Positions 8,504 through 48,736 of a stretch of 64,000 nucleotides of DNA are shown one piece after another (positions within the stretch are counted from its first letter, which is position 1; each line of letters opens with the position of its first letter). The position numbers were made by a program, and so were the translations under genes. The DNA is from an uncultured virus (IMG/VR IMGVR_UViG_3300031088_000775) (lineage: Duplodnaviria; Heunggongvirae; Uroviricota; Caudoviricetes). Location of the stretch: IMG/VR virus record IMGVR_UViG_3300031088_000775, one strand, 5' to 3'. Under the pieces are notes generated by a model. It had not been told where the DNA came from, made no database searches, and worked only from the letters and a program-made list of their open reading frames with translations.

Positions 8504-8567
8504 TTTTTGGGAAAGTCTCCTTTTTATTTCTATATTCTGTTATAATGATTATCAACTAGAGTCAATC

Positions 8568-13685: not shown

Positions 13686-13890
13686 CTATCCTAACCCTCT
13701 TTGACAATAGAAAATTACAGTACTGCTTTAGTTCATTCTTAAAACTTTTACAGTATACATACGGTTTAAATATCGAATGAGCATTAAAACTAAACCCATC
13801 AAACATATTTTCTAAAGTAATTTAAAAATAAGTCGCGAATAAACAGAATAAACAACTAATCAATAAAATAGAACATTACAAAAAGTGTTA

Positions 13891-14932
13891 CTAACCTTTT
13901 GAAAGTTCTGACAACAAGAGAATCTCATTATCACTAAAATCGCCGCTTAAAACTCTACAAACTTCTGAAATAACAGCGGCGTGATTATCCCTCCAATCTG
14001 ATTCCCAAATAAAATAAAGGTCAACACCAGCTCTTTTAGCCTTTTCAAACTTCATCCTATGGTATTCTAGTGCTGTCATTTTAGTTCTTCGCAAAAGAAC
14101 TTCATTGCTATGCCAATAGTCCCCATTAAACTCAAATCCTACTTTTAACTCTTCAATATAGATATCTAACTCATACGGCCAAATAACTGAACTGTTAGAA
14201 TTCTCTACAACGAAGCTTGTTAATCCCTGAACGTACTCAAATACTTCTTTCTCTACTTTTGAAACTTTAGATTTTCTATAACAGTCTTTACAACTAGTAC
14301 CCTCAATAGATCTTCTGCTAAGTCTAGTTCTCCACTCAAAAGAACAATCGGAACAACACCAATAAACATATGAATTAGAGTTAAATTTTATCTCTTTAGG
14401 GTTAACTGTATTTCTCTCATGATCCCAATCTTTTAAAAGACTTTTACATCTAGTTTCAAGATCGTTAAACCCCCGTAGTAGTCTAATATTCTCGCAATAT
14501 GGGCATTTCTGACTCTTACTTACAAAAATATCTAATTGCAGATTCCCATGTGTGTGAGCAATTCTTACTCAACCACCAAACTTTAACACCCGACCCAATT
14601 GTATAGTCTTCAGGTTTATTTTTATTCTTTTTAAAATTCCAAAAGTCTTCAATATTAGGAAGCTTACTCTTAAGATCATTCACTCCAATAATAGGTATTT
14701 TACCAGCGCAATAAGGGCAGCCTTTATTTTTAGAAGTTCTCTCAGAAACTTTCATCTTGTATCTATGCTTTTTAATGCAAATCCAACGAGCAATTATAGA
14801 ACTCTTTGAATAGACATCTTTGGGTGACATTTTATTTAATTCAATGTCCCACTCTTTTGAAATCTCTATGTAAAGAAATGCAAGGCTCTTCTCGTAAGGT
14901 ACAAATCTATTTTTATCTTCAATCTTACTCAC
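13891..14932 (-). pseudogene. Zinc-ribbon (DUF4379-like) repeat plus PD-(D/E)XK/DUF559-like endonuclease, frameshifted
   Basis: ORF 14516-14932 (CPYC, KVWW) continues after one extra T in the run at 14524-14528 into an open frame reading VSKSQKCPYCENIRLLRGFNDL...ELDIYIEELKVGFEFNGDYWHS, which ends at 13891. Confidence 0.85.
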
Positions 14933-14957
14933 AAAAATACATGATCCTTAATCTAAA

Positions 14958-15004
14958 AACTAGAGCGCGGTGACTAATAAAAACATAGTCACCGCGCTCT
15001 AGTT
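14958..15004 (-). terminator. Intrinsic terminator after phoH
   Basis: 19-bp perfect inverted repeat AACTAGAGCGCGGTGACTA. Confidence 0.75.
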
Positions 15005-15019
15005 AATTACGAAAATTAC

Positions 15020-16474
15020 TTACTGCCCAGCAAGAATACGTGAAGCAAGTTCAGCAACCTTAGAACGCTCAGTCTTCTTGAGTGAGATATGAGCAAAAAG
15101 ATCTTCAGTCTTTAGTGTTTCCACTACAGACCAAATGTCAGCTTTCTTACCAGGGTGAATGTACTTGTTATCTACCTGATCGGCATCCCATGTGAGTACG
15201 ATTTTAGATCCCTCACCAGCTCTTGAAAGAATATTAAGAATTTCTGAACGAGAGAAGTTCTGAGCTTCTTCAAGAATTAAGTAAGTGTTAGCTAATGATC
15301 GACCACGAAGATAGGTAATGGGTGAAACCTCTACCATTCCTCTAAGATTCTCAATCTCGGTTTTCACTGCCTGACCATTCGGATCGTCAGTTTTCTTCTT
15401 GACTTTAGCAGCTCGAGCCATAGCATCAATAGCATCGAATACAGCCCCAGCCCATGCCTCCATCTTCTCATCAACACCGCCAGGCAAGAATCCCATTTCC
15501 TGGCCTTGGCCCATTTCATGAAGACTTCTGAAAGCAATAATCTTCTCGTAACGGCCTTTCTTAAGACCTTCAATTCCAGCGGAAAGCGCTACAAGTGTTT
15601 TACCAGTTCCAGCAGGTCCGCCAAGTGAAACAATTGGCAATTCCTCGGCTGGACGTAATAGGTATTCATATGAGACATCCTGCTCAATAGTTCTGCCTAC
15701 AAGATTCTGTACTTTCTGCTTACGCTTAATATAGTCAAGCTCTCCATTATGCAAAACAAAATCAGCTGTAGTTTTTGAACCTTTTAGAACAAGAGTAACA
15801 ATAGCATGATTCGATACGTTTTCTGGAAGTTGCTCTAAAATCCATTCACCATGAGTATTGAGAAACTTATCTCTTTCTTCGCCTGAGAAAGCTCTACCAT
15901 TGAGATCGTCAACTGTAATCTCAACTTCATAACGACCATCAAATGGTTTAGCACCAACGATTGTAGCGACATTGAATTCTACTGCCTTGATTTTAAGATC
16001 AGTAGTAGCCTTAATACGCATTGGAGTGTCATTAGACATGAGAACTAAACTAGAAACATCAATAGTATTATTAGTGTCTTTAATAAGGTTCATAGCAACT
16101 GCTAGAACAGTACTATCATTAGTGCCATTTTGTAGATGTTCGGGAAGAGATTTCTGGCTAGAGTGATTAGGCTCGACGCTAATCTTTACTTTAGGGAAAT
16201 CATCATGATAGACGCCTTCTGAAAGCTTTTCTTCATATTTTACTCGAAGCTCTTCAAGTAGGTTAATCCATTCTCGAGCTAAGAACCCGACGTTAGATTT
16301 AGTACGATTGTATTCAACTTCATCGAGAACTACTGCCGGGATTACTAGGTGGCACTCAGGAAGTGTAGTTAGTAATCCGACACCTGACATAAGTAGCGAT
16401 GATGTATCAACTACGATTGTCTTGTGCTCTAGAGCTGATGCGAAGGATCCGAGTGGGGAGTTAAGTTCAGTCAT
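15020..16474 (-). CDS. phoH: PhoH2-type protein (PIN domain plus PhoH ATPase)
   Basis: N-terminal PIN (VVDTSSL, NDSTVL, SNDTPMRIKA); GPAGTGKT; MGFLPG; YLRGRSL; EEAQN. Confidence 0.92.
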   Translation of the reverse strand: MTELNSPLGSFASALEHKTIVVDTSSLLMSGVGLLTTLPECHLVIPAVVLDEVEYNRTKSNVGFLAREWINLLEELRVKYEEKLSEGVYHDDFPKVKISVEPNHSSQKSLPEHLQNGTNDSTVLAVAMNLIKDTNNTIDVSSLVLMSNDTPMRIKATTDLKIKAVEFNVATIVGAKPFDGRYEVEITVDDLNGRAFSGEERDKFLNTHGEWILEQLPENVSNHAIVTLVLKGSKTTADFVLHNGELDYIKRKQKVQNLVGRTIEQDVSYEYLLRPAEELPIVSLGGPAGTGKTLVALSAGIEGLKKGRYEKIIAFRSLHEMGQGQEMGFLPGGVDEKMEAWAGAVFDAIDAMARAAKVKKKTDDPNGQAVKTEIENLRGMVEVSPITYLRGRSLANTYLILEEAQNFSRSEILNILSRAGEGSKIVLTWDADQVDNKYIHPGKKADIWSVVETLKTEDLFAHISLKKTERSKVAELASRILAGQ

Positions 16475-16631
16475 TTCCCTATTCCTGTCTTTAGTTGGCT
16501 GCAGGAGATTCGCTGATTGCGTAGTTTTTATACAATTATGAACCTCCTTAGTTGAGGATTATTTCCTTATATTTTCTAAACAATTTAACTTGCAAATACT
16601 GTTTTAGATTAAGTCGTAAGAACTTAAAACT

Positions 16632-16680
16632 AAAGCGGTATTGCTGTAATGTTACCAAAGTAATACAGCAATACCGCTTT
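16632..16680 (-). terminator. Terminator hairpin downstream of tad-like genes
   Basis: AAAGCGGTATTGCTGTA/TACAGCAATACCGCTTT inverted repeat; its loop contains a GGTAACAT promoter-like motif. Confidence 0.7.
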
Positions 16681-16702
16681 TTATATTAAATTTTTTAATT
16701 TT

Positions 16703-17377
16703 TTACAAATCCTGGTTAGAGCCGAACGCTATAGCGCTAACTGATGACTTATAGACCTGGCAATTAAGATCGTCACTTCCAAATAAGCTTCCTGCCATAC
16801 CTAGAACCATGTTCTGAGAAGCTGTATAAACGTCTGCAGAAATGACTTTATACTTATTAGCGTCTGCTCCCTTTAGCCCAAATGTCTTATCTGTAATGTT
16901 TCCATTAATAATTTCAATAGTCTTAGACTTAGTGCCAGACTTACCTCTCTCAGTACTTAAAGTAAGTCTATAATATGGCATTTTTACATTTTTCTTAACA
17001 GTTCCGTCATCTAAAGTTATGTCAACTCTTTCGCAAGCGCCACCTTCATAAGTTTCATTTTCAGATGTGGCGATATTTTTCCCAGTTTTAGAATTAGCTG
17101 CTGACCCGCTCTGCAACTCAAATTCTTTTTGAAATTTAGCAATAGCAGAATTACCTAAACTACCTCTTGCGTCAATCGACTTAACAGCGGCTTCAGCTGC
17201 TGTTTGAGCTTGCTGATCATAGAGACCTTTAAGGTAAATATTCTTACTAACGTCAATTGTCATACCGCACAATAATGCTATAAGTGGCACAGCTAGAATA
17301 AAGGTAGTTAGAACTGAGTCAGCTCTATCTCTAACTCTCGAATCTCTATTACTTCTAGATTTAATAAAATTTCTCAA
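16703..17377 (-). CDS. TadG/TadE-like pseudopilin
   Basis: Basic leader, DRADS, hydrophobic helix ending in D, then a QTAAEAA motif typical of Tad pseudopilins. Confidence 0.65.
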   Translation of the reverse strand: MRNFIKSRSNRDSRVRDRADSVLTTFILAVPLIALLCGMTIDVSKNIYLKGLYDQQAQTAAEAAVKSIDARGSLGNSAIAKFQKEFELQSGSAANSKTGKNIATSENETYEGGACERVDITLDDGTVKKNVKMPYYRLTLSTERGKSGTKSKTIEIINGNITDKTFGLKGADANKYKVISADVYTASQNMVLGMAGSLFGSDDLNCQVYKSSVSAIAFGSNQDL

Positions 17378-17383
17378 AGTAGA

Positions 17384-17965
17384 CTACCTCCTATCAGTCA
17401 GACCTGGTTTTTGAACTTCAGATTCAACCGAGGCAGAGGTTGTATTCTCTTTAAATAAATTAATCATAGAGAGAACTGAACCTGGGGTACCATTATAAGT
17501 CCACTTAATTTCGCAGTATGCTCTATCACCGATAGCTTCGGCTTGTGATTTCTTATTTTCATTAGCAAAGCACTCAATACTATTGATAGAAACATTAATG
17601 AAGCTTGATGAATTTTGGAATCCCTTCATAATATTACATTCAACAGCCCTATTCCGTTTAATGACCTTAGCTACAGCTAGATCCTGATCTGAAGCAACCA
17701 GCTTACCGCAAGTTTCTGCTGTAGTCATTCCATATTTATTTTCGATCTTAGTACTTTGCAATGCTGTACCGTTACCACCCATGATAGCAACTGTGCGGGC
17801 ACCACTATGAGCGGCACTGTAAATTTGTGAACGGTTAGTGAAATACGCACTAGCATCAATGATTCCAAAGAAGACCGCCATAATTAGAGGTATCACAATG
17901 ACTATAGACACTAAGTTAGAGTCAGCCCTATCTCCTTTTAGTCTATTTTTTATAAATTTTAACAT
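17384..17965 (-). CDS. TadE-like pseudopilin
   Basis: RLKGDRADS..IVIPLIMAVFFGIID...AAHSGAR matches the TadE pattern (P, G..D/E, AAxxGAR). Confidence 0.75.
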   Translation of the reverse strand: MLKFIKNRLKGDRADSNLVSIVIVIPLIMAVFFGIIDASAYFTNRSQIYSAAHSGARTVAIMGGNGTALQSTKIENKYGMTTAETCGKLVASDQDLAVAKVIKRNRAVECNIMKGFQNSSSFINVSINSIECFANENKKSQAEAIGDRAYCEIKWTYNGTPGSVLSMINLFKENTTSASVESEVQKPGLTDRR

Positions 17966-18040
17966 TAAGTATCTTCTCCGAGACGAGTTTGTAATCCACT
18001 TTGTGAAATATCAATTACTATCTTTTCTAAAAGGTTTCCC

Positions 18041-18904
18041 TTAAGCAAAATTCTGTAATTGACGAACCTCTTCACGAAGTTCTAGAATAGTGTCCATATA
18101 ATTCTCACATTGCGAGCATTGGTAAATCGTTGGTGGCTCTCCCCAACCGTTATCAGCAACATCCATAATAGAAATATAGAATCTACGCTTCGCGTCAAGA
18201 CTCATATGAGCATCGGCTGAAGAATCAGGTTCAAGACCGAAAATCATCATTCTCAAATAATCGCTTGAAGATACGCAAAGCCTTTGAGCGCGCCACTTGA
18301 TAGTCTCTGATTCAGTCATAGACATTCTACCTGAAAGACGGTTATTTCTCTTCTCATTCTGAGCCACAATCTTTGAAAGTGATTGATTGATCTTGTTAAT
18401 CTCACGCTCAATCAAAAGAGCGTCCTCATTGTCATCAGTTGATTCAACTCTCTTAATGAGATTATTCTTTTTCTTTCGGAGTTCACCTTGATTTTTAGCA
18501 ATGTCTTCAAGTTCTTTAATCGCTCTTACAGCAATGTCTCTCCAGCCGTTAATGTCTACAGAACCTAATGCTCTATTGCGAATAAATTGAGACATAGTGA
18601 TTCGCCCACCAGTGTCTTTAACTATTTGCAATTCAGCATCTAAAGAGAGTCTTTCAGCTGTGGTTACTGTAATAGAGACTCTCTGATCTAGCGGGGCGGT
18701 CTTCTTTTTCTTATTTGAAGTTCTTGGAGACCATCCTTTGAAAATGTCAATAAGATCTTTACGACCCATGTCTTCAAGAATTTTTAGTTTTTCATCAACT
18801 GACAATGATTCACTAGCTACTTTATAGCTATCATTATCTTTCTTTTGGCGCTGAGCTCGAATAGCTTCAGCGGCTTTTTTCTCGCGAGTTGAAATTGTAC
18901 TCAT
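18041..18904 (-). CDS. MobC/MobA-like tandem ribbon-helix-helix protein
   Basis: Two RHH-like units (RVSITVTTAERLSL..MSQFIRNRAL and LSGRMSMTESETIKWRAQRLCVSSSDYLR) separated by a coiled coil; located in the transfer region. Confidence 0.55.
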   Translation of the reverse strand: MSTISTREKKAAEAIRAQRQKKDNDSYKVASESLSVDEKLKILEDMGRKDLIDIFKGWSPRTSNKKKKTAPLDQRVSITVTTAERLSLDAELQIVKDTGGRITMSQFIRNRALGSVDINGWRDIAVRAIKELEDIAKNQGELRKKKNNLIKRVESTDDNEDALLIEREINKINQSLSKIVAQNEKRNNRLSGRMSMTESETIKWRAQRLCVSSSDYLRMMIFGLEPDSSADAHMSLDAKRRFYISIMDVADNGWGEPPTIYQCSQCENYMDTILELREEVRQLQNFA

Positions 18905-18936
18905 GTTAATCTTCCTAGATATATCTAACTACGCCG

Positions 18937-18985
18937 AGACTGCAGTCTAACAGTACTTCAGGCTTATGGTGTGTGATTGTACGAG
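18937..18985 (+). repeat. Partial diverged copy of the intergenic repeat (palindrome module)
   Basis: AGACTGCAGTCTAA-CAGTACTTCAGGCTTATGGTGT aligns with 31961-32000. Confidence 0.55.
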
Positions 18986-19083
18986 CCGAATATGTGGCTC
19001 TCAAACTGTCTGGTGCCGCTGTTTAGCGCATACTCACTAGACCATTATTAGTCATGTATTTTCTTAAAGCTTTAATTTAGAGT

Positions 19084-19902
19084 CTAGCATTTCTGAAGAC
19101 CTACTTTCAAAGCGCGCTTATCTTTATCCGAAATTGCAAGATCATACTTCTTTACAGTGTCAACCCACTTCTTCGAGTAATCACAGTGGAAGTTCTTATT
19201 CGGTGGCATGTAATCGCCAGGACCCTTATCTGACTTCTTGCGATTTTCAGAAGCTGAAACTGCTAGTAATTGTGACTGATCATTAGCGAATTGTTCTTTC
19301 TTCTTTGCGTCCCAATTATTGCCACCTGCTTTAGCCGCATAGCTTAGCGGAACAATATGATCTATATCGAGTTTTGATGCGTCAGTAAAAGTTTCATTTG
19401 CATATGGCTCGACCCAGGTCCCTGAAAGTGCTTTACAGGTTTTAGAATCTGTTTTCACATTTTTACCTTGATTCTTCAATACTGTCTCGCGAGTATCGCA
19501 AGGATTACCTATCCAGTGCTTCCATTCAGACCTTTTATAATCAACTTTCTCTTGCGATCCTTCTTTAAGGGTTTCTAAAGTTGCAATATACTTATCTCTG
19601 TCTTTTTTAGCTTCTTCTGGATTATTAGGTTTGGATGTGTTAGACCCAGATCCGGATTTATCACTATTATTATTTGAGCCAGATCCGCCTCCATTACTAC
19701 CGCTACCTTCACAAGTCCATTCAGCCTTATCAGCGCCGCAATCAAAAGCTTTGTCCGACCAAGACTTGAAGTAATCATAGCCGTCTTTTACTGAGTTAAT
19801 GTCATTAGTTTTTCCCCAGCCAAAAATAACAGCAATAATTGCGAATAATGTTAAAGCTGAGAGCATTCCACCCTTGAAGCTTCCGCCACCTTTTTTAGCC
19901 AT
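19084..19902 (-). CDS. Exported HNH nuclease (DUF1524/GmrSD C-terminal-like)
   Basis: Signal/TM, Gly/Ser linker, CDTRETVL, DIDHIVPL, FAND..LLAV...NRKKSDKGP. Confidence 0.85.
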   Translation of the reverse strand: MAKKGGGSFKGGMLSALTLFAIIAVIFGWGKTNDINSVKDGYDYFKSWSDKAFDCGADKAEWTCEGSGSNGGGSGSNNNSDKSGSGSNTSKPNNPEEAKKDRDKYIATLETLKEGSQEKVDYKRSEWKHWIGNPCDTRETVLKNQGKNVKTDSKTCKALSGTWVEPYANETFTDASKLDIDHIVPLSYAAKAGGNNWDAKKKEQFANDQSQLLAVSASENRKKSDKGPGDYMPPNKNFHCDYSKKWVDTVKKYDLAISDKDKRALKVGLQKC

Positions 19903-21299
19903 TAAATATTCCCCTCACTACCGAAAATAGGATCACCAATGTCAGACGAGAAATTAAAACCCGATGTAGCCAATGATGTTAAGTTTGTTGTCTGTTTAAA
20001 AGCGTCAAAGCGCACATAGTCTCCAGGCATTTGCTCTAAGAAGAGACCTGCTTGATTTCCTGAGGACCAAGATAGATGAATATCCATATCAGCATAGCGC
20101 TGTTTTAGGAAACTGAAATAATCTTTAACTTGAGCCTCAGATGTACCATCAATAACAATGCGATAATGGCCTTCGACCCAAGGGCTCTTGTCTTGAGTTA
20201 TCACCTGTGAAATAGTTTGAATATCTTCAAGAGAATCCATTACATCAGATGGGAAAGGTTCAATAATATTATCAGTTGAAGTTCTACCGACACTTAAGTT
20301 CTCAATTTCGTCTTTATGCTCTTGCTTCTTCTTTTCGAGCTCAGTCTTTATTTTATCGCTGGGAACAAGATCAAATCTTGCATAGCATGTGAAAGGTAAT
20401 CCTACGCGCTGCGGAAGGTATAAGAACGGAATGGCTGCACTTGGGAATCCTTGGAATTTAGCAAAACTAGCGAATGTGATGCAAGCTCTGTACCCTTCTT
20501 GCTCTGTACCATCTTCTTGAAGTTGATTGATTTTAAGCATACGCCAAGTTTTAGTAATTGCTTTATGCACTTCTAGAGCAATATCCCCTGGGCCAATACG
20601 GTTGTCATGATCAATCTCTAAATATGGTGTTCTCATTGCTGGGTAGAATTGACGCTTAATCAAGAGTAGAATCTCTTCAGCGGTACATCTAGTAGCATCG
20701 AGATTACCTGTAGACAATGAACGGTATACACTTTCTTCTTGCTGTCTAGTCTTCATTTCTTCTGTACTAGATATCTCATCTGTAGGTTGCTTCAATGATG
20801 TAGCAATACCTTCTTTAATAGTATCCCAAGCTCCTTTAACGCCAGCTTCAAAAATATTTGTATCGCTTGACTCGATAGCACCTCTTTTACCCAGGCTTAC
20901 TCCCAAGTATGTAACTTTCCTATGGAATTGCTCATATTGAAGATAGCGCACCTGCTCATCAATATATCTATCAAACCCTTCAGGGGTCCCCCAACCTTTT
21001 GAAATTTCTTTTACTTGCGCAGACCATGAATCAACATCAACTGGTACTGAGGTAATGATCATATGGCAGGAAAGTTTTTCTTTTCTTGAAGACATTAGAT
21101 CATTCAGAGCGTTTGTTACTCTAAGCCCTAAGCTAACCTGCTGAGAACTAGACAGGAAATCAAATACTTCATTGCTAACCTTATAATAGGCCATTTTTTC
21201 AGTCTTGCTAAAAACTATATTGTCGATAATAGCCCTTGCTGAAATGTCAAGATTTTTTAGAGACTTCGACTTGTCTGAGCTACTAGCTTTTTTTGCCAT
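19902..21299 (-). CDS. Conjugation protein resembling the N-terminal half of VirB4/TcpF/ConE (no Walker motifs)
   Basis: IIDNIVFSKTEKMAYY, YLGVSLG and QAGLFLEQMPG resemble the N-terminal region of Gram-positive VirB4. No GxxGxGK[ST]. Confidence 0.55.
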   Translation of the reverse strand: MAKKASSSDKSKSLKNLDISARAIIDNIVFSKTEKMAYYKVSNEVFDFLSSSQQVSLGLRVTNALNDLMSSRKEKLSCHMIITSVPVDVDSWSAQVKEISKGWGTPEGFDRYIDEQVRYLQYEQFHRKVTYLGVSLGKRGAIESSDTNIFEAGVKGAWDTIKEGIATSLKQPTDEISSTEEMKTRQQEESVYRSLSTGNLDATRCTAEEILLLIKRQFYPAMRTPYLEIDHDNRIGPGDIALEVHKAITKTWRMLKINQLQEDGTEQEGYRACITFASFAKFQGFPSAAIPFLYLPQRVGLPFTCYARFDLVPSDKIKTELEKKKQEHKDEIENLSVGRTSTDNIIEPFPSDVMDSLEDIQTISQVITQDKSPWVEGHYRIVIDGTSEAQVKDYFSFLKQRYADMDIHLSWSSGNQAGLFLEQMPGDYVRFDAFKQTTNLTSLATSGFNFSSDIGDPIFGSEGNI

Positions 21300-21462
21300 T
21301 CGCTTTTCCGCCCCTTAAATTAAGTGTTTTTAAACTTATTTTTAATATCGCTTTGAACCGCATATCTACTTTTTCTTTTTTCTAAACTAAAAAAGTACGC
21401 TGAATATATCTTATTTCAGCGTACTTTCTATTCTTTTTTAAAATTATAGAATAATTTTACAA

Positions 21463-21798
21463 TTACTCGCTATAAACATCTGTAAATTCAGCAGTACCTG
21501 AAAGATCAGGGGCTACAGTGTTAATTTGCTTAGCGGCATTCTTAGCTACCTTAGTAAGACCTGCGTCCTTACTACCGAATAGCTCTCCACCAGCAAAGAC
21601 AAGAACACCAACAACCGCGGCAATACCGACGAAGCCAATAAGCTTCATCCAAGCGCGATCCTTAATGAACATGATAGCGAATACAGCTACAGCAGCAATA
21701 AAGAGCGGGGTAATCCAGCTCTTTAGAACTGTATTCCAAAGATTTGTCAAACCTGAACCTGCTGCTTCAATTTCTACTAAATTATTTAAAAGTTCCAT
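21463..21798 (-). CDS. VirB2/TcpD-like small 2-TM conjugation protein
   Basis: 111 aa hairpin of two hydrophobic helices, lying between tcpC-like and virB4-like genes. Confidence 0.6.
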   Translation of the reverse strand: MELLNNLVEIEAAGSGLTNLWNTVLKSWITPLFIAAVAVFAIMFIKDRAWMKLIGFVGIAAVVGVLVFAGGELFGSKDAGLTKVAKNAAKQINTVAPDLSGTAEFTDVYSE

Positions 21799-21912
21799 TT
21801 TATTTACTCCATGGATTTGTCTGTACAGGACCTAAATCTCACCTAAACTAGTATTTAAAGATAAGATCCTTTTTAATATCAAAACTTTTGTTTTAATCTT
21901 TTCTAAAACATT

Positions 21913-23715
21913 TTACTCGCTTTCTAGCGCATCCGATGCAACAAAGTATTCAGGCGCAAATTTGCTTACTAAATACTTATCATTATCTTGCTTTTCTAAA
22001 GTCATAATATAGTTAGAGTTATACTCAGATCTTATTTCTTTATTTCCTGGAATATTATTAGCCCAACGAACACCAACTTTAACCTTAACCTCGCCAGGGA
22101 TTTCAGTTGGATAAGCCTCAAAGGTTAAGCCAGACTCAATACCACCAGCAAAATCATATTGACCATCAAGTCCCCTCTTGAGTTCGCTGCCAGCATCACT
22201 AACAATATACTGATCAAGAGCTGAATGATCTGTAGGTGAAGAAGTTGCGTAGCCTTTCATAAATCCTTGAACCACTGAAGTGAGGGATTTAGTAAGTTCT
22301 TCATCAACAGAACCTGTTCCGATAGGATTCGCGTCAGGGACATCCGAAGCAGCCATAACTTCAGCTGCTGGGACAACAGTTGGAGAGTCAGGGGTAATTG
22401 ATAGTGCCCCTGTATCTGGATTAGCATATACATTGACGTTAAAAAATTCCCAATGTGAGGCTGAATCATCTGAAGGTGCTTTTGCCTCAGAGTTTGAAGA
22501 CTCAACTAGTGCTCCTACCACATAACTTGTTGAATGGTCTGTTAAAGGAGTTACAGAGTAAATCGTTGGCCCATAGAGAATTTTCTGACGTAAGCTTTGA
22601 TTCATATATCTTGCTTCATTGTTAGAAGGAGCAAAATTACCCGAATAGAAATAACCTAATACTGAATTTCCAACTTTATCTTTATCATCAGTCAAATAAG
22701 CCTGCATAAAGTCAATTGCATATCCTCTACCGCTTTCAATTGGGAAACCAGTGACATTATTAGCAGCTAAAGCTTCTGCCTGAATTTCATCAGCAGTCCA
22801 TTGATCCGCAGGCATAAAAGAACTCTTAAGGCCTAATAAAAATATACCTCCTAATAACCCAATAACTGAATACTTAACTATAGCTGCATTCCGAGATTTA
22901 TTCTTACGTTCATCAAAGTCATTGACTTTAATAGACTTTCGATTAGGATTACCGTAAGGCTTTAATTTAAGATTTTCTTCATCAATAAAAATATCCTGCC
23001 CAGTCTTATCTTTCTTATTTTTCTTAGACTTATTACTCTTTTTCTGTGATTGCTTTGCCGCGAGCGCTTCAGCCTGTTGTTTTGACTCTTCTTCTTCCTC
23101 CGCGAGTTTATCTAACTCTTCTTTCTCTCGCTGAGCTTTTCTCATTCGAGCTTCTTCAAGAAGCTTCTTTCGCTCTGCATCTTCAGCCCGAACTCTAGCA
23201 TCCTCTTCGTCATAAGGATCATACTCAGTTTCTTCAATTTGCTCATCTACTGGTATCGAGCTAAAAGTATCGTCTTCGGGATCATCAAAACTATTTACTA
23301 CTCTATCATTCTGAATAGGCCGGGGTCTAGCGGGCTTGCGATTCTGACTCATAGACCCTGAATGAAGAGGATTTTCATTCGAAAGTTCTGGAAGTCCATC
23401 GTCTCGATAATTCAATCTACTAGGTAAGCCTTGGCTTTTTGACCCTTCATCGAATTGTTGCTGGCCTTGATTAGGACTTTGCGGACGATTCAAATTTCCG
23501 CCTTGATTACCTTGCTGTCTCTGATTGGCGGATTCGGGTCGAACCCTTCTTTGAGCTTGGTTTGGTAAATCTTGCGGTAACCCTTGCTGTCGATTACCCG
23601 GACTTGATGGCAAACCCCCCTGAGGCTTTCTTGGAGGCTGATTAGGGTTCTGTGGTAAGCCGCCCTGACCTGGTCTGTTTGTAGGAATCACTATATAAAC
23701 CCCGTTTACTTTCAC
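21913..23715 (-). CDS. TcpC/VirB8-like conjugal transfer protein
   Basis: Disordered Q/P-rich N-terminus, one TM, then two NTF2-like repeats (FMQAYLT; VQGFMKGYA...YIMTLEK). True start may be the GTG at 23691. Confidence 0.75.
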   Translation of the reverse strand: MKVNGVYIVIPTNRPGQGGLPQNPNQPPRKPQGGLPSSPGNRQQGLPQDLPNQAQRRVRPESANQRQQGNQGGNLNRPQSPNQGQQQFDEGSKSQGLPSRLNYRDDGLPELSNENPLHSGSMSQNRKPARPRPIQNDRVVNSFDDPEDDTFSSIPVDEQIEETEYDPYDEEDARVRAEDAERKKLLEEARMRKAQREKEELDKLAEEEEESKQQAEALAAKQSQKKSNKSKKNKKDKTGQDIFIDEENLKLKPYGNPNRKSIKVNDFDERKNKSRNAAIVKYSVIGLLGGIFLLGLKSSFMPADQWTADEIQAEALAANNVTGFPIESGRGYAIDFMQAYLTDDKDKVGNSVLGYFYSGNFAPSNNEARYMNQSLRQKILYGPTIYSVTPLTDHSTSYVVGALVESSNSEAKAPSDDSASHWEFFNVNVYANPDTGALSITPDSPTVVPAAEVMAASDVPDANPIGTGSVDEELTKSLTSVVQGFMKGYATSSPTDHSALDQYIVSDAGSELKRGLDGQYDFAGGIESGLTFEAYPTEIPGEVKVKVGVRWANNIPGNKEIRSEYNSNYIMTLEKQDNDKYLVSKFAPEYFVASDALESE

Positions 23716-23748
23716 GTTTTATCTTCAGTAACTAATATCGAATTGTCG

Positions 23749-26295
23749 CTAAAAATCTAAGTCAGGCAACTCATCGTCATCATTAAAAGAATCTAAAGAA
23801 TTTTCTTTCTTAACTGAATTCTTTCCTAATTTTTTATTTTCTCTCTTCTCAGGTATGAAGTTAGGATTGAAGAATTCCTCAAAAGAATTATTCTTTACTA
23901 CATTCTTAGCCTTTGAGTCGAGAGCAGGAGGATTAAATGAGGGAAGTTCTTCTAAATCTTCATCAAAAATTATAGAATCAGTCTTTGACTCTGCTTTTCT
24001 TAACTTCGAATTGACCTCATTAAGTTCATTCTCAGTCTCTTCATCTAGAACCTCCCACTCAAAGTCCCCATCAATTTGCTCTTCAGTAGGTGCTGGAGGC
24101 ACAGGCTCAAATGCTTCGTCATAATACTCTGGAACATACTCGCTCGAAGAGTGACTACTCTGCGAATAATCATTAAATGAATCTAATGAAGAATCTTCAG
24201 TAGCCGATTGCTTAGAAGTCTTTTGAATTGAATAATCTGGATCTTCACCGTTTAAGTGGCTATTATAGATTCGAGAACTATATGATAAGAAGTCTTCCTC
24301 AGTATCCTCAAGATTCTCGATAGTTAAGTCAGACTCCTCATTTAAAGCGATAGTTTTAGTCGGAACACTGGGTTTTAAAGCAGCTTTATGCTCAACTAGC
24401 ACTTCTTGGGAAGGTATCATCCAAACTTGTCTTGCAGCAGCACCATCACGAAGAGGCTTAAGTCTACTGTCTGCAGAAACTTTATTAATAATTACAGCAG
24501 TTGATTTGAAACCATTATTTTCGTCTGGTGAAGATAGTCTCAAGAATCTACTTGGTTCAAAAATCCATCTTTGAGCATTACGAGTTTGGACAATATTATT
24601 TCTCTTATTAGACCAATTCCAAGAAAAGAAGAAACTAGAACTCTGATTAGTTCTCACATAGTCTGTAAACTCTTCTTTACCTAAGATTTTTGATAATCTT
24701 TCAGCAGAATCTTCAGTCATACCAGCATGGATAATGAAATTAGAGCAAGTATCAAGAATTGACAACAAATACGCCTCACCGTTTGATGGAGCAGAAGAAA
24801 TAATCTGCTCAAACGACTGCTGCGCTAAGGTCATTGCAATCTTAGATTCTCTAGATTTTTCTAAAAGTGAAGTAACAGATGTTGGAGGAACTGCCTGAAA
24901 TTCGTCAACATATACATTCAACTGAGGGAATTTTCTTGAAGTCATTTCATTACGGCGCATAGCTGAAACTGCAGTAATATTTGAAAGAATCATTGATCCA
25001 ACGAAAGTAGCGAACTCTTTCTCATCGTCAGAATTAAGAGAAAATAAAATGACATTATTGCCCGTAGAGGTTAGCTCATGAAGCTTAATATTTCTATCTT
25101 CTTCATCTTTCGAGAACTTCATCCAACGTCCATAGTCCGAAGCTGTAATAGTTCTTAATTGACCTTGAAGGGCTCCGACTGCGTGCGCAATCTGAGTCTT
25201 ACCTTTAGCCTGTTCAGCTAATCCTTCAGCTTCTTCCTGAATACTAGTCCCTTCGCAGGCAATAGCTAATTCCATAAGATTATCATCTTTAATTGCTGAA
25301 GCAAGTAGCTTAATTCCTCCAGACTGCCAATCAATAGACGGAGCCTTACTTTTATCAGCTTCTTCAAGCATAGCAAAAAGAACCTGAAGCAATTGAGTCA
25401 TATTATCTTTATATACAGCAGACGCGGTATCGTATTCACGCATATTCAAGACCATGTCAGCCTTGTAAGTTCTTGAACCACTTGCTAACGGATCCCAGAA
25501 TGCTTGACCAGGAGAATTAGAAATATTATAACTCTTTGGGTCGCCACTAACGAAGTGATAGAATCCGGCACCAGCATCTTTAGCCCAAGTAGCGGCTTTA
25601 GATGCTAACTGAGGGGAGCGCTTGAAGTCAATAATAATTAAAGGTTTACCCTCTTGGATGTCTGCGTAGATTAGAGAAAGCATCGTAATGGTTTTACCCG
25701 AACCAACACCACCACTAATAAGAGTCTGCTTTACAGCTTCTTCGTTAAAACGATAAGCAACTAAGTCTCCGTTTTCTTCATCAAGACCTAACGGTGCTCT
25801 ACCTTCCTCTAGAAACTCTCCTTTTTTAAGACCTTCAATTGTTCTTTTTCTTCTTAATACTTCGATTGGGCTGCGGCGATACTTGAATTTATATGTCCAA
25901 CTACCTTCAAGATGTACCCTATCAGGGTTATTCTTTAGAGTGTGAACTTGCCATAAAATACCACCGAAGCCACCAATGAAGCCTAACATTGCGTTAATAA
26001 TTAAGACTGCAGGTAGTAATTCTGTCCATTCAGTTGCAAATGATGACAAATCAGAGAAGACATACATTGCTCTAGAGAACGCTTCAGTAGATATCCATAA
26101 AACTACTAACAGCAATTCAAGAATTAGCATTGTTACTGCTGACACTGAACGCTTTTGGCGTAGTTTTCGGAACATGATAAACCAAAAGGTAAATCCTATG
26201 ATTACAGCGGGGAGAAAGAGAACAGCAAGTAAAATCGTTAGACCATACTTGCTGTCACCTTTGCTCTCCGAGACATTTGATTGACTGTCAAACAT
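23749..26295 (-). CDS. Type IV coupling protein (VirD4/TraD/TraG-like)
   Basis: N-terminal TMs, Walker A GGVGSGKT, IIIDFK, Walker B VYVDEFQ, KSRE..AQQS, SAERLSKILG; acidic tail. Confidence 0.9.
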   Translation of the reverse strand: MFDSQSNVSESKGDSKYGLTILLAVLFLPAVIIGFTFWFIMFRKLRQKRSVSAVTMLILELLLVVLWISTEAFSRAMYVFSDLSSFATEWTELLPAVLIINAMLGFIGGFGGILWQVHTLKNNPDRVHLEGSWTYKFKYRRSPIEVLRRKRTIEGLKKGEFLEEGRAPLGLDEENGDLVAYRFNEEAVKQTLISGGVGSGKTITMLSLIYADIQEGKPLIIIDFKRSPQLASKAATWAKDAGAGFYHFVSGDPKSYNISNSPGQAFWDPLASGSRTYKADMVLNMREYDTASAVYKDNMTQLLQVLFAMLEEADKSKAPSIDWQSGGIKLLASAIKDDNLMELAIACEGTSIQEEAEGLAEQAKGKTQIAHAVGALQGQLRTITASDYGRWMKFSKDEEDRNIKLHELTSTGNNVILFSLNSDDEKEFATFVGSMILSNITAVSAMRRNEMTSRKFPQLNVYVDEFQAVPPTSVTSLLEKSRESKIAMTLAQQSFEQIISSAPSNGEAYLLSILDTCSNFIIHAGMTEDSAERLSKILGKEEFTDYVRTNQSSSFFFSWNWSNKRNNIVQTRNAQRWIFEPSRFLRLSSPDENNGFKSTAVIINKVSADSRLKPLRDGAAARQVWMIPSQEVLVEHKAALKPSVPTKTIALNEESDLTIENLEDTEEDFLSYSSRIYNSHLNGEDPDYSIQKTSKQSATEDSSLDSFNDYSQSSHSSSEYVPEYYDEAFEPVPPAPTEEQIDGDFEWEVLDEETENELNEVNSKLRKAESKTDSIIFDEDLEELPSFNPPALDSKAKNVVKNNSFEEFFNPNFIPEKRENKKLGKNSVKKENSLDSFNDDDELPDLDF

Positions 26296-45211: not shown

Positions 45212-45401
45212 CGCCTGAAAAACATTTGACTTTTGCTGTGAATTGAGGTCTTATTTCGGTTTTAATAAGGTACAGTGAATGTAGACACTGTTAAGCAAAC
45301 GAAGAAAATCACTAAAATGATTCGCGCTGAATGCGGACTATAGAGTCAATAGGGGGTTATTGTTTGAAGCAACTTAATAGTTATGCTGACCATTTCAGGC
45401 G
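45212..45401 (+). ncRNA. Candidate multi-stem structured RNA
   Basis: Closing stem CGCCTGAAA/TTTCAGGCG; internal TTGACTTT/AGAGTCAA, CTTATT/AATAAG, ACAGTG/CACTGT and AATCA/TGATT stems; no ORF. Confidence 0.35.
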
Positions 45402-45430
45402 CAGATGAGAGCAGCAAGGCTACTGTAAAA

Positions 45431-45557
45431 TAGCTCTTAGGGTATAGTCATACAGTAAACAGCATTTTCCGTTAAAACTGTATAGAAACACGAAAAGACC
45501 ACCTAGTTTGCCGTGATAGCCTCGGGTCTAACTAGGTGGTCTTAGTAGAGCAGTTTT
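45431..45557 (+). repeat. Intergenic structured repeat, copy 2
   Basis: Contains a perfect 14-bp IR AAGACCACCTAGTT/AACTAGGTGGTCTT (45495-45543); near-identical core to the copy at 56215. Confidence 0.9.
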
Positions 45558-45639
45558 CGCTCGAACTTCAAGACAGCAAAAATTGCTTCTAAAACAGCTT
45601 TTTGGTAAAATTGACAAAAGTAACTTCAAAGGGGTATAA

Positions 45640-46593
45640 ATGTCATCAGTTTCAGTAAAGATATACGAAAGTAAAATCATGGGGAATGCTGCCTATGATT
45701 ACTCTGTAGACAATGGTAACTCATTTATCTCAGGACACTACAGAATTTTAGCAGACCATGAGCGTCACCCAAGATTTAATAACATGACTATTGCTGAATA
45801 TAATGAGAAAAAGGAAATCGACAAAGACTTCGCTAACGAAGAAGCCTTTAAACTCATTCCGTCTAAAAAGATAGAGACAGTTGAAGAAGCATATTATGCC
45901 GTCGCTTCAACTATTCGCACAAGCTTCAGTGATCATTGCATGAAAACAAAATCGTCTCCATCATACGAAATCAAAGACAGTCGAAAGAAATATGATGATA
46001 GCATTACAGATTCATTAAGATTTTTCAGTGGATCAAAGTATAGACATAACATTGAATACAGTAAAGCTGATGTTAATGAGGGAAACATCTCAAAACTTAA
46101 AGAAAATGACTATGTAGCGCTAACTAATACTAAAAACTTCCTTCTAGAGTTCCCGACCCGAAGAGTTACTCTAAAGTCAGACGAAATTTACGTAGACACA
46201 TCTCATATCCCTCTATTTAAAAAGAGTAAGATGACTTTAAAAGAATTAAAAGAACTAGATTATGAGATTTCTGAAATTCATAAACACTCAAAGATTGCAA
46301 GGCCTGAGCATGACACGCGTAAATACAAAGTGACTGAGTTAAGCCTAAAACCGCGTCCGCGCATCGGATCAATCGCCTCGCTTCTAGAATCTCGAAAAGC
46401 TGTAAAATCTCTTCACGATTACTATCAAGCTAGAATTGATTCAGGAGACCCTCTATTTTATCAGCATATGGTGGATCTTTATGAGGAGTCAGGTAAGGCT
46501 GTAGAGCATATTGAGAAGATTCTTGAAATATTTGATAGTCTTGAAGAAGAGAATGAAAAAATAAACGAATTTGAGGATAAAAATGAGCAGTGA
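45640..46593 (+). CDS. Hypothetical protein
   Basis: 317-aa ORF with AAGGGG RBS and a GGTAAAAT promoter at 45604. Confidence 0.75.
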   Translation: MSSVSVKIYESKIMGNAAYDYSVDNGNSFISGHYRILADHERHPRFNNMTIAEYNEKKEIDKDFANEEAFKLIPSKKIETVEEAYYAVASTIRTSFSDHCMKTKSSPSYEIKDSRKKYDDSITDSLRFFSGSKYRHNIEYSKADVNEGNISKLKENDYVALTNTKNFLLEFPTRRVTLKSDEIYVDTSHIPLFKKSKMTLKELKELDYEISEIHKHSKIARPEHDTRKYKVTELSLKPRPRIGSIASLLESRKAVKSLHDYYQARIDSGDPLFYQHMVDLYEESGKAVEHIEKILEIFDSLEEENEKINEFEDKNEQ

Positions 46594-47344
46594 TTTTGAG
46601 AAATCTAAAGAAGAAGCCTTTCTAGAGTACATGAAGATTTCTGAAGAGATTGATAGTCTTTTAGAAGAGACCAGATTTGATTTGCATTCTCAAGATATTA
46701 AGAAGTGGGAGTGGATGCAGGAGTTCATCCCCGAAATTATAGTAAGCTCAGCAGGAGGATTGTCACCTTTTCAAGCAGAAGGCTTTATTGAAGATTTCTT
46801 CTTCTACTACCGTGAGCGTGGAGGTGTAGCTAGCTTAAGGCTTTCAGACTCTATCGATAAGTCATATGGTTATAACTCCTCTTTATACAGCGCAAGTCTA
46901 GAGGTCGAGGAGTTCCGAAGTGGCTCGGGCTGGATTGAAACATTCTTTAATCTTTATGAAAGACTAGAAAAGACTAAAAATCTCTATGACTTCGAATCCA
47001 ACGAGGTAAAATTCAACGGTGACGGTAAACCGTATTTGACTGGTGAGAAGTCTACTACAGCGGAGTGGGGTTATACTTCAGACGAAGCCTACAATGAAAT
47101 TATAAAGCATCAAGATAGTGAGAAAACAATTAAGATTTGGACTGATTATAGAAAGTTCTCGCGTGAAAATTATCTTGAATACATTAGATTAAGAGACGTC
47201 CAAAATAAAGTCTTAAATATTGAATACAATGACAAGAATTACCCTGAGGTTGAACCAGTATTTAAGGTAATCACACCTGAGAGCTGGAGACAAGCTGATG
47301 GTTCGATAAGAATTCCTGAAGATTTCTTCGAAGATCAAGGATAA
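46583..47344 (+). CDS. Hypothetical protein
   Basis: ORF with likely ATG at 46583 after a GAGG RBS; contains a phage-like GGLSPFQAEG..FYYRERGG motif. Confidence 0.75.
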   Translation: MSSDFEKSKEEAFLEYMKISEEIDSLLEETRFDLHSQDIKKWEWMQEFIPEIIVSSAGGLSPFQAEGFIEDFFFYYRERGGVASLRLSDSIDKSYGYNSSLYSASLEVEEFRSGSGWIETFFNLYERLEKTKNLYDFESNEVKFNGDGKPYLTGEKSTTAEWGYTSDEAYNEIIKHQDSEKTIKIWTDYRKFSRENYLEYIRLRDVQNKVLNIEYNDKNYPEVEPVFKVITPESWRQADGSIRIPEDFFEDQG

Positions 47345-47350
47345 TAAAAT

Positions 47351-47385
47351 TAAGGGCTAGTAATCAAAGGTGTTACTAGCCCTTA
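47351..47385. terminator. Bidirectional terminator between the ORF and rnpB
   Basis: 13-bp IR TAAGGGCTAGTAA/TTACTAGCCCTTA between convergent genes. Confidence 0.75.
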
Positions 47386-47387
47386 AG

Positions 47388-47632
47388 AGGATAGCTATAA
47401 GCCGGGTTCTGTATCCTTCTCTAAAGAAAGACGATTGTCATCTAACTATGCTCTCTACCCGAAGTCTATAGAGTCACTCCGCTCAGACCTCTGCTTGAGA
47501 TTGCTTCTTGCCCCCACACTGCTTTTTAAGTTGTGCTTCGTGGTCCAAGCGAATTCTAAAATTCTCCCAAAAGGCTAGGTGAAGAAGCCCGGACTTTCCT
47601 CAGCCACAAAGGCCGCGACAATCCGCTATCCT
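47388..47632 (-). ncRNA. rnpB: RNase P RNA, minimal (~245 nt)
   Basis: Minus strand has CR-I GAGGAAAGUCCGGGC and CR-V ACAGAACCCGGCUUA. Stems: P1 AGGAUAGC/GCUAUCCU, P2 GAUUGUC/GACAAUC, P3, P5 GCUUCUU/AAGAAGC, P15 UCUC/GAGA with L15 GGU, P16 GAGGUCU/AGACUUC, P19. Confidence 0.93.
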
Positions 47633-47639
47633 AGAGTAA

Positions 47640-47648
47640 ACTATATCA
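47640..47648 (-). promoter_or_regulatory. Extended -10 promoter of rnpB
   Basis: TGA-TATAGT ends 7 nt upstream of the P1 5' end. Confidence 0.6.
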
Positions 47649-47722
47649 TGAAAGAAAATATAAACAATATTGGATCCTCCAATTAAAAACTAAAATAAGA
47701 AATACTTGATAAAATACATACA

Positions 47723-48736
47723 ATGGCTATTAAAGAAAACGGAGAAACAATGACACAGTTTGAAACAGACCGCCAAATCATCAAAGATAAATTGGCTGAC
47801 TGGACTAAAAACCTTGAAGAAAAATTCGAGGTGACTCTAACTGAAGACTCAGTAAAGATTAAGAATATTCTCATCGACTTCAGTGCTTCAGGGGAATCCT
47901 CACAAGCAATGAAAGATCGAAAGTATAAGCTTCTAGAAGAAGGTATCGAACTATACTACGTTTACCCTTGGGATGTTAAGAACATTGATAGCATGATCAG
48001 CCACTTCAACTCTAAACTAGGTCTTGACGAGATTAAGCTATCCGCAAGAAGACTTAAAGTAGAGAAAATTGACAATACCTTAGCAAATGCCTTCGCAAAA
48101 GAAAACCACATTCAGAAGTCTGCTAACGGTCCAGGTAAAATCAGTTACGCTCTCCGTGACAAGAAAACAGGCGAGATCATGGCAGTACAGCAATACTGCA
48201 AGTCTCGATGGAGTCTTAAAGCAGGTGATCCTGGAGTTTGGGAGGGTCTACGTCTAGTTATTAAGAATGGTGTTCAAATCCACGGTGCTGCCACAAGACT
48301 TCAAAAAGCTTTTATTAAAGATGAGAATCCTAATAAGCTCATGAGCTATGTAGACTTCAGCCACTCGCTAGGTAATTATAAGGCGACTCAAGGGTTCACC
48401 CTAGATGAACTCAAAGGCGATAGCTACATGTGGGTTCTCATGACAGATGATCCGTATGACTTAATGATTATTGACAAAGATGGCGAAGAGCGCCACCCAG
48501 ATCTTGAGAAAGTTCTAAAAACACCATATTTGAATCCTAATACTGTCGCCGGCCCCTTCGGAAAAGGCTGCGGAGTATTACTATATGGTGGTCGAAAATT
48601 AGGTTCTCGCAAGATCTTGAAAGAGAAAGGCAACGTCGAGTATCATAACGACATGTTCCTTGAAAAAATCGGCTACCAGCGAGTATACACCGCGGGTCAA
48701 CTCCGCTGGTCTATCACTTTACACGATGGTGAATAA
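47723..48736 (+). CDS. Hef-like/Mom-like GNAT-fold phage protein
   Basis: ARRL..FAKENHIQ..WEGLRL..IHGAATRL..LMSYVDF..G..Y..GF pattern seen in phage Hef-like endonuclease C-terminal/Mom-type acetyltransferase domains. Confidence 0.5.
   Translation: MAIKENGETMTQFETDRQIIKDKLADWTKNLEEKFEVTLTEDSVKIKNILIDFSASGESSQAMKDRKYKLLEEGIELYYVYPWDVKNIDSMISHFNSKLGLDEIKLSARRLKVEKIDNTLANAFAKENHIQKSANGPGKISYALRDKKTGEIMAVQQYCKSRWSLKAGDPGVWEGLRLVIKNGVQIHGAATRLQKAFIKDENPNKLMSYVDFSHSLGNYKATQGFTLDELKGDSYMWVLMTDDPYDLMIIDKDGEERHPDLEKVLKTPYLNPNTVAGPFGKGCGVLLYGGRKLGSRKILKEKGNVEYHNDMFLEKIGYQRVYTAGQLRWSITLHDGE

Follow-up and report, generated by a model that had tools for sequence, protein, structure and literature searches.

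To our knowledge, the RNA of ribonuclease P (RNase P) is treated as the product of a strictly cellular or organellar, single-copy and essential gene. One of its natural forms, the archaeal type T of the Thermoproteaceae, has lost most of the specificity domain (S-domain) and retains an archaeal core and archaeal proteins. Here we describe a reduced RNase P RNA gene in a different genetic setting. A stretch of 64,000 nt from an uncultured virus (IMG/VR record IMGVR_UViG_3300031088_000775; Caudoviricetes), referred to at its full length as the window, carries at 47388..47632 on the minus strand what is probably an intact, selected and shortened type A RNase P RNA gene of a giant mobile element, the product of which would process the pre-tRNAs of that element together with the host protein RnpA.

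Reduced RNase P RNAs have also been described in bacteria. The chromosomal RNAs of the Candidate Phyla Radiation (CPR) were found below Rfam thresholds and lack P13, P14 and P18, and some of them P12 as well (Lui et al. 2021, PMC8172020). About two-thirds of the diverged CPR RNAs are without the CCA-binding motif, and the available text of the same paper mentions reduced forms in Mycoplasma fermentans and in the Thermoproteaceae, the latter with loss of P12 (PMC8172020). The view of the initial annotation of the window, that comparably reduced forms are known mainly from archaeal type T, is hence too narrow. Unlike the CPR RNAs, which are encoded by a single chromosomal rnpB, the window RNA keeps the GGU of its P15 loop and is mobile, and the profile of its own family scores CPR loci poorly. 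Engineered type A catalytic domains cleave substrates by themselves, albeit at reduced efficiency (PMC5839562); these are laboratory truncations, whereas the window RNA is natural, conserved and keeps a small stub in place of the S-domain. A virus-borne RNA proposed to resemble RNase P RNA shows only some structural similarity and does not process pre-tRNAs in vitro; the window RNA, by contrast, fits the covariance model and possesses all the conserved core regions.

No account of a bacterial RNase P RNA encoded by a phage or a plasmid turned up in the full-text literature, with the supplements of huge-phage papers and most subscription journals lying outside the search. The available parts of a recent RNase P review mention phage-encoded tRNAs, and a phage RNase P RNA was not found in them (PMC11143913); in the main text of the P finder paper the words phage, plasmid and virus do not occur (PMC7191817).

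The closest textbook system is bacterial type A (rnpB, encoding the M1 RNA of E. coli; RF00010), with which the window RNA shares P1 to P6, the bulged U of P4, the conserved regions CR-I, CR-IV and CR-V, P15 with its GGU, and P16/P17; the P6 pseudoknot in particular is a type A-specific feature. It differs from RF00010 in its length (245 nt against a model of 367 positions), in the absence of P18 and in the stub of about 70 nt that stands for P7–P14 with CR-II and CR-III; moreover its gene belongs to a mobile element, and rnpA was sought in the window without success. The likeness to archaeal type T appears to be confined to the loss of most of the S-domain; the core of the window RNA matches bacterial type A best and has P15–P17 and GGU.

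A covariance-model search (cmscan) of 47200–47800 with E-value reporting matched RF00010 (RNaseP_bact_a) at 47382–47634 on the minus strand, with 81.9 bits (E 2.9e-25) and across model positions 1–367. RF00010 is the best-scoring member of the RNase P clan at the locus, where two lower-scoring clan matches overlap it. The curated gathering score of RF00010 is 100 bits and the standard scan of the whole 64-kb window therefore misses the locus, returning no Rfam match at the gathering threshold. The match upholds the original proposal of an RNase P RNA of about 245 nt at 47388–47632 and adds the strand, on which that proposal had been silent. The two ends, 47388 and 47632, are precisely the outer base pairs of P1, and the locus is further supported by a score of 178.4 bits against the hidden Markov model (HMM) of its family and by covariation. 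Taken together, these comparisons confirm, at the level of sequence, a real RNase P RNA gene of bacterial type A in shortened form. In the numbering used for the RNA, position 1 corresponds to 47634, so that a window coordinate equals 47635 minus the position.

The model alignment and our reading of the sequence agree on a complete catalytic domain without P18, as had been parsed before (P1–P5, P15 with GGU, P16/P17, P19 and CR-I, CR-IV and CR-V), and the P6 pseudoknot, which covaries, is an addition to that parse. In the following, pairing percentages and compensatory changes refer to an alignment of 13 family sequences described below. P1 (RNA 3–10 with 240–247) pairs the 5′ strand AGGAUAGC at 47625..47632 with 47388–47395 in eight base pairs, seven of them with compensatory changes and 91.7% of cells paired. 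P2 (RNA 12–18 with 196–202) brings GAUUGUC at 47617..47623 together with 47433–47439; all seven pairs show compensatory changes and 91.1% of cells pair. P3 is a very short hairpin, GGCC UUUGU GGCU (RNA 21–24 with 30–33; 47602..47614; 88% paired, 3/4 compensatory). It is followed by CR-I, GAGGAAAGUCCGGGC (RNA 34–48; 47587..47601), which agrees with the model consensus and includes the 5′ strand of P4. P4 itself, in which U42 is bulged, joins RNA 39–41 and 43–46 to 230–236 (47589–47596 with 47399–47405); it is paired in every cell of the 13 sequences and two of its seven pairs are compensatory. P5 (RNA 48–51 with 128–131) is formed by CUUC at 47584..47587 and GAAG at 47504–47507 (98.1% paired, 3/4 compensatory). 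The P6 pseudoknot (RNA 53–56 with 158–161) connects UCAC at 47579..47582 with GUGA at 47474–47477, its 3′ strand sitting in the loop of P17; all four pairs are compensatory, 82.7% of cells pair, and as read from the alignment the two strands differ among the 13 sequences but are complementary within each.

The 3′ half of the catalytic domain is dominated by the P15–P16–P17 arm (47452..47500), composed of P15 (RNA 135–138 with 180–183), P16 (RNA 144–150 with 168–174) and P17 (RNA 151–153 with 162–164), which are paired in 98%, 74.4% and 100% of cells with three, five and two compensatory pairs, respectively. The GGU of the L15 loop (RNA 176–178; 47457–47459) lies within the heptamer CGGGUAG (47455–47461) in agreement with the model; GGU is kept in 12 of the 13 family sequences, the remaining one having GGC, and the whole heptamer in 10. 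CR-IV, AUAGUUAGAUG (RNA 186–196; 47439..47449), also agrees with the model consensus and comes straight after the 3′ strand of P15, which leaves no room for P18: a model segment of 24 positions is represented by 0 nt in the sequence. Between the 3′ strand of P2 and CR-V we read a P19 hairpin, UCUUUCU UUAG AGAAGGA (RNA 204–210 with 215–221; 47414..47431). CR-V, ACAGAACCCGGCUUA (RNA 223–237; 47398..47412), includes the 3′ strand of P4 and matches the model consensus exactly. Overall, the helices P1, P2, P3, P5, P6 and P15–P17 are 74–100% paired across the family and each includes compensatory pairs.

The S-domain has been replaced by a stub (47508..47578) to which the Rfam model does not align. 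There are 76 nt between the two strands of P5, and in lieu of the 15+15+110 S-domain positions of the model the sequence has 21+20+33 unaligned nucleotides; P7–P14 with CR-II and CR-III are not encountered. The reduction first noted, to about 70 nt, is thus borne out, yet the domain is not simply missing since the stub is conserved. Its centrepiece is a helix, UUGG/CCAC in the window and GUGG/CCAC in the relatives (47567–47570 with 47540–47543), with 96.2% of cells paired and three of four pairs compensatory; it is capped by a variable hairpin (47551–47564) and in one relative (L002) forms a plain hairpin. The helix is followed by a conserved A-rich strand, GAAGCACAACUUAAAAAGCAG (47519–47539), with the motif CYUAARAAGYAR, which occurs in 14 of 250 candidate loci. 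A closing helix GCC/GGC of 3 bp is weak (76.5% paired, one of three pairs compensatory). Two other pairings considered for the stub, GCUU/AAGC and the mini-hairpin CUU/AAG, were rejected, as they are paired in 74.4% and 87.2% of cells but show no compensatory change; covariation within the stub accordingly supports a single helix, GUGG/CCAC. A less reduced viral RNA (L006; 269 nt, 136 bits) still aligns to the P7–P11 and CR-II region of the model, whereas the stub of the window RNA does not.

In the window RNA CR-I and CR-V are 174 nt apart, closer than in ordinary bacterial RNase P RNAs, and for this reason relatives were sought as CR-I and CR-V motifs spaced 131–191 nt apart in three contig collections (viral_contigs, genome_contigs and metagenome_contigs). 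With successive relaxation of the motifs the number of loci in the viral contigs rose from 1 to 2 and finally to 10; the genome contigs yielded at least 120 and the metagenome contigs at least 119. The first two viral loci, L001 and L002, are reduced RF00010 matches of 84.9 and 71.7 bits; indeed all 12 further loci that were tested with Rfam gave reduced matches (209–278 nt, 49.7–136.2 bits), 11 of them below the RF00010 cut-off and only L006 above it. A profile (nhmmer HMM) built from 13 sequences that share the stub of the window RNA, and ignoring structure, delimits a family: 16 of 250 sources, or 14 distinct sequences, score 134–187 bits (178.4 for the window), and the next best score is 62.7. 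Its members are the window RNA, L001, L002, L003 (identical to L009), L007 (identical to L203), L161, L170, L182, L185, L190, L210, L211, L226 and L227. None of the 120 genome loci listed belongs to it, the best family score among them being at most 53 bits; by title these are mostly archaeal and CPR genomes. The spacing pattern matches archaeal metagenome-assembled genomes (Archaeoglobaceae, ANME-1 and Iainarchaeum) among these listed loci (L011–L130), as well as CPR genomes (Dojkabacteria, Microgenomates and Saccharibacteria) and some gammaproteobacterial ones.

The consensus structure holds across the family. On a MAFFT alignment of the 13 sequences, standard pairing is seen in 88.9% of 751 cells, and compensatory changes support 45 of 67 pairs; none of 500 shuffles reaches any of five measures, and slid controls pair at 34.6–44.0%, a comparison that is biased in favour of the structure because it was drawn from the window sequence, although the compensatory counts remain large. 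P4 and P6, the two pseudoknots that define type A, both covary. The fold of this RNA is thus shown to be under selection.

The genomic context of the family is the tRNA array. Same-strand tRNA genes lie beside 12 of the 13 other family members, and ARAGORN detected tRNA genes at 18 of 19 other loci inspected, invariably in the orientation of the RNase P RNA; the exception is a locus of 556 nt. In 12 of the 19 a tRNA is found within 9 nt of the RNase P RNA (0–9 nt). Among the matches listed, at least three tRNAs accompany all 10 viral loci; the same is true of 1 of the 120 genome loci and of 20 of the 119 from metagenomes. We infer from the close abutment of tRNA and RNase P RNA that the array copies are units released by tRNA-end processing. 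The window RNA resembles these array-borne RNAs in its HMM score (178 against 134–187 bits), in the GUGG/CCAC helix and in the CYUAARAAGYAR strand. In contrast to them it stands outside any same-strand tRNA array as a free-standing gene flanked by promoter-like and terminator-like sequences of its own; as set out below, a conjugation module was recognised on its carrier and virion genes were not, and the insert at the P19 site is common only to the window RNA and L190, in both of which it folds as a hairpin.

The signals flanking the gene were read from the sequence. An extended −10-like element, TGATATAGT (47640..47648, minus strand), ends 7–8 nt before P1. Downstream, a terminator-like hairpin of 37 nt (47350–47386) followed by AAUUUUAUUAU spans 47339..47386 on the minus strand; the hairpin at 47386–47350 has a folding energy of −20.5 kcal/mol (z −6.31), and none of 200 shuffles was as good. 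An extended −10 promoter and a terminator of the gene's own had been noted at the outset; both are indeed visible, but there is no −35 and a consensus scan lists neither. We regard it as plausible that the two are working signals. A candidate promoter motif shared with a repeat of the element, CTTAGGGTATAGT, had 26 matches against 17.7 expected, with 4 of 100 shuffles as good, which is not significant.

The carrier is a mobile element, as had been supposed. Its minus-strand block (1–45 kb) holds a conjugation set of the Gram-positive type; by Pfam and NCBIfam matches the module proper (6986..26295, minus strand) encodes a cell-wall hydrolase, a VirB6/CD3337-like protein of 1705 amino acids (aa), TadE-like and NikA/MbpA-like proteins, a TcpF/VirB4-like ATPase, TcpC and a TraD-like coupling protein. 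Phage-type functions comprise a sigma factor, PhoH2, DnaG, a glutaredoxin-like protein, an exonuclease, a RecE-like nuclease, ThyX, RIIA, PrimPol, T4-type topoisomerase II subunits and RadA, and there are at least five homing endonucleases. No rRNA, tRNA, ribosomal-protein or housekeeping genes were found in the 64-kb window. Gene direction and GC skew switch at around 40–45 kb.

A relative from the viral collection, here called G001 (309,534 bp; IMG/VR class 'provirus'; CheckV completeness estimate 100), gives an idea of the whole element. Its topoisomerase II and coupling protein are 73% and 52% identical to those of the window, and synteny extends over 1–42 kb of the window (57.5–17.8 kb of G001) and over 51–64 kb (214–235 kb of G001). 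A PHROGs scan of 185 of its 250 open reading frames (ORFs) of at least 100 aa recovered Pol III alpha, clamp, clamp loader, RNR, ligase, ParA and many homing endonucleases and no capsid or portal family; searches of G001 with the Pfam families Terminase_6N, Terminase_6C and Phage_capsid were likewise all negative. An ORF of 380 aa in G001 whose matches to minor-tail, tail and virion-structural PHROGs are confined to its C-terminal part was not counted as a virion module, nor were 'terminase' PHROG matches, because the same PHROGs match intein-bearing DnaB or VirB4-like ATPases; the DnaB matches suggest that G001 DnaB carries an intein. With a conjugation module present, and with virion genes recognised neither in the window nor in the 185 ORFs, the carrier looks like a giant plasmid-like element of conjugative type whose replisome resembles that of phages; judging by this relative, its size is about 300 kb. 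Alternatively, it may be a phage whose virion genes are unrecognisable. The region of G001 from 145 to 176 kb contains 66 tRNA genes on a single strand, only two of which encode CCA. The mini RNase P RNA gene lies in a variable region: an 8.6-kb segment of the window (about 42.5–51.1 kb), absent from G001, holds the gene between an ORF without known family and homing endonuclease genes.

The whole stretch is present in one metagenome run, possibly the one from which it derives, and parts of it in runs of 11 other studies, none of them RNA. A contig from one run (X3) covers 46192–47334 with 168 differences, continues with 1737 inserted letters and then covers 47381–47983 (603 nt) with 24 differences and three single-base gaps, one of these in a G-run of the stub; a related element from a different study thus retains the gene. 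The insert falls exactly between the end of the upstream ORF and the terminator of the RNA (window 47334–47381). Neither the RNA (blastn) nor the window from 40000 to 64000 (megablast) found a match among PLSDB plasmids and INPHARED phages; the family does occur in viral and metagenome contigs.

How would such a gene serve its carrier? In the reading that we consider probable, it would be transcribed from its own promoter as a stand-alone RNA of about 245–250 nt, which would bind host RnpA and remove the 5′ leaders of pre-tRNAs. The partner would have to be the host protein, given that neither the window nor its relatives encode RnpA (PF00825 matched none of the 137 open frames of the window and none of the four related viral records inspected); the borrowing of RnpA proposed initially fits this absence, though it is deduced from it. 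Its likely substrates would be the transcripts of a large tRNA array of the element outside the window, such an array being suggested by the 66 tRNAs of G001. As a result the tRNA supply of the element would depend less on the RNase P RNA of the host. For the array-borne relatives, the RNA may be released by the same tRNA-end processing. The suggestion that the RNA processes element tRNAs can thus be sustained only by way of the 309-kb relative, which itself lacks the RNA, the window being devoid of tRNAs; the structured repeats nearby, offered as further substrates, found no support, as the repeats that were found resemble promoters and terminators.

Several observations weigh against this reading. 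The RF00010 score is beneath the curated cut-off, and the single-sequence fold is ordinary (z −1.46 on the minus strand and −0.41 on the plus strand), hence the case for an RNase P RNA is built on the covariance model and on the comparison with relatives. The consensus scan reported 0 promoters and 0 terminators at the locus, there being no −35 match and a hairpin loop over the limit of the scan. ARAGORN found no tRNA or tmRNA gene in the 64-kb window, whereas 12 of the 13 other family members have tRNAs beside them. G001 has no RNase P RNA by RF00010, spacing pattern, BLAST or family HMM in spite of its 66 tRNAs, from which it follows that the RNA is dispensable for that lineage. Finally, CCA is encoded by only 9 of 91 tRNA genes next to family members, and the conserved GGU can therefore not be explained by encoded CCA ends.

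Some of these facts would sit equally well with other functions. The RNA might be a decoy or regulator that sequesters host RnpA or competes for pre-tRNAs, modulating host tRNA maturation instead of serving as an enzyme of the element, a role that has been discussed for a poxvirus RNase P-like RNA (PMC3001073, in its available text) and that would suit a reduced S-domain, a window without tRNA genes and an RNA that is dispensable in G001. We consider it unlikely, because 13 diverged sequences have all kept the nucleotides of the catalytic core together with the GGU loop and the bulged U of P4, none of which a mere protein sponge would need; membership of tRNA arrays, where an enzyme makes sense, also speaks for catalysis. 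Were the RNA instead active mainly on non-tRNA substrates, such as element mRNAs, tRNA-like structures or other structured RNAs, the lack of tRNAs in 64 kb would cease to be a difficulty, and the choice of substrates would be less strict with an elbow-reading domain that is reduced; cleavage of non-tRNA substrates by bacterial RNase P is documented (PMC11143913, in its available parts). Against this small chance stand the array context of the family and the failure to find a candidate, the repeats of the window looking like promoters or terminators and the motif search remaining at chance level.

The location of the gene raises the question of whether it is used at all. It is the only family member found without neighbouring tRNAs, it sits in the 8.6-kb variable region by homing endonuclease genes, a 1737-nt insertion adjoins it in another sample and G001 does without it, all of which would be expected of a hitch-hiking relic that moved from a phage tRNA array, perhaps with homing-endonuclease traffic, and is no longer used. 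Yet the core shows no degraded position, and all of the helices can form in the window sequence; the gene has gained promoter-like and terminator-like signals, which are missing from array copies, and the second sample keeps the gene with 24 differences in 603 nt, which makes a relic quite improbable in our estimation. The last alternative, that the window is cellular DNA and the gene the ordinary chromosomal rnpB of a small-genome bacterium, for instance of the CPR, is scarcely credible. CPR bacteria do have reduced RNAs without P12–P14 and P18 (PMC8172020, in its available text) and the spacing pattern also matched CPR and archaeal genomes, but the window offers conjugation genes, RIIA, T4-type topoisomerase, PhoH2, ThyX and homing endonucleases where a chromosome would show rRNA, tRNA and ribosomal-protein genes. 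Furthermore, the syntenic G001 has 66 tRNAs and neither RNase P RNA nor rnpA, a lack that a cell could not tolerate; and the family HMM gives at most 53 bits in the 120 genome loci listed.

What looks new here is a free-standing copy away from a tRNA array on a carrier that looks conjugative rather than viral. Enlarging on the probable reading of an element enzyme, one may tentatively envisage, with the balance slightly against it, a self-contained tRNA 5′-processing ribozyme that moves between mobile elements, both phages and a giant conjugative plasmid-like element, as an array unit or as an independent gene; its stub would be a new minimal way to read the tRNA elbow or to do without it, and it would operate with host RnpA or perhaps with no protein. 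The window illustrates that the RNA can exist as a free-standing gene outside tRNA arrays. If the gene functions as we propose, this ribozyme would join the translation-related genes carried by large elements, explain the maturation of dozens of element tRNAs in arrays and offer RNA biochemists a minimal bacterial RNase P of natural origin with which to examine the need for a specificity domain. At standard Rfam thresholds the family goes unnoticed, with the window and 11 of 12 further loci below the cut-off. RNase P RNA is in use as a marker of genome completeness (PMC8172020).

The immediate neighbours of the gene offer few clues. It is divergent from a homing/HNH endonuclease-like gene (47723..48736, plus strand; phrog_3339, 6.1e-23; phrog_559, 6.8e-23) and convergent with an ORF of 257 aa (46571..47344, plus strand) that belongs to no known family, with no match in Pfam, PHROGs or NCBIfam and no homolog in G001; neither of the two upstream ORFs has a known family or a homolog in G001. 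A dedicated protein cofactor encoded nearby was considered and rejected, as tblastx of the window against the flanks of 19 other loci revealed no protein-coding similarity.

A number of observations on the other loci may be recorded. One 79-kb metagenome contig (L190) has, in the tRNA array that also contains its mini RNase P RNA, a manA RNA (L190:3182-3362; 72 bits) and a bacterial small signal recognition particle RNA (L190:4502-4593; 47.4 bits). On a 115-kb viral contig (L007) a tmRNA gene (881–1249, 93 bits), for which ARAGORN calls a tag peptide, lies about 1.7 kb upstream of the mini RNase P RNA. Next to four of the five more distant viral forms (L005, L006, L008 and L010), 70 of 72 tRNA genes encode CCA; 0 of 12 do so next to the fifth, L004. 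In L005 and L010 most adjacent tRNAs are one base apart, and one RNase P cut per junction would therefore nearly finish both ends. No nearby tRNA gene was seen for 109 of the 120 genome loci listed; a 5.4-kb contig among them that was binned as an archaeon (L065) has 19 tRNAs and may be viral. A 639-nt contig from a further run (X6) matches the window only in CR-V (47393–47417) and CR-I (47564–47601), with 159 other letters between, and represents another short RNase P RNA, distinct from that of the window.

Elsewhere in the window, the intergenic region at the strand switch (45335–45601) reaches 50–800-fold word depth in three runs. It has a 59-nt repeat in common with 31976–32034 and a 49-nt palindromic hairpin in common with 56228–56276, the loop being inverted; these look like element-wide promoter and terminator repeats. 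Within the gene of the 1705-aa VirB6/CD3337-like protein, an 80-nt repeat recurs nine times at 9333–9727 in overlapping copies, at alternating intervals of 45 and 30 nt, which gives a repetitive protein segment. Lastly, several proteins (13894–14932, 48827–49594 and 61931–63160) contain a DUF4379 treble-clef zinc finger, and most of these also match homing/HNH endonuclease PHROGs; such endonucleases are scattered across the window and G001.

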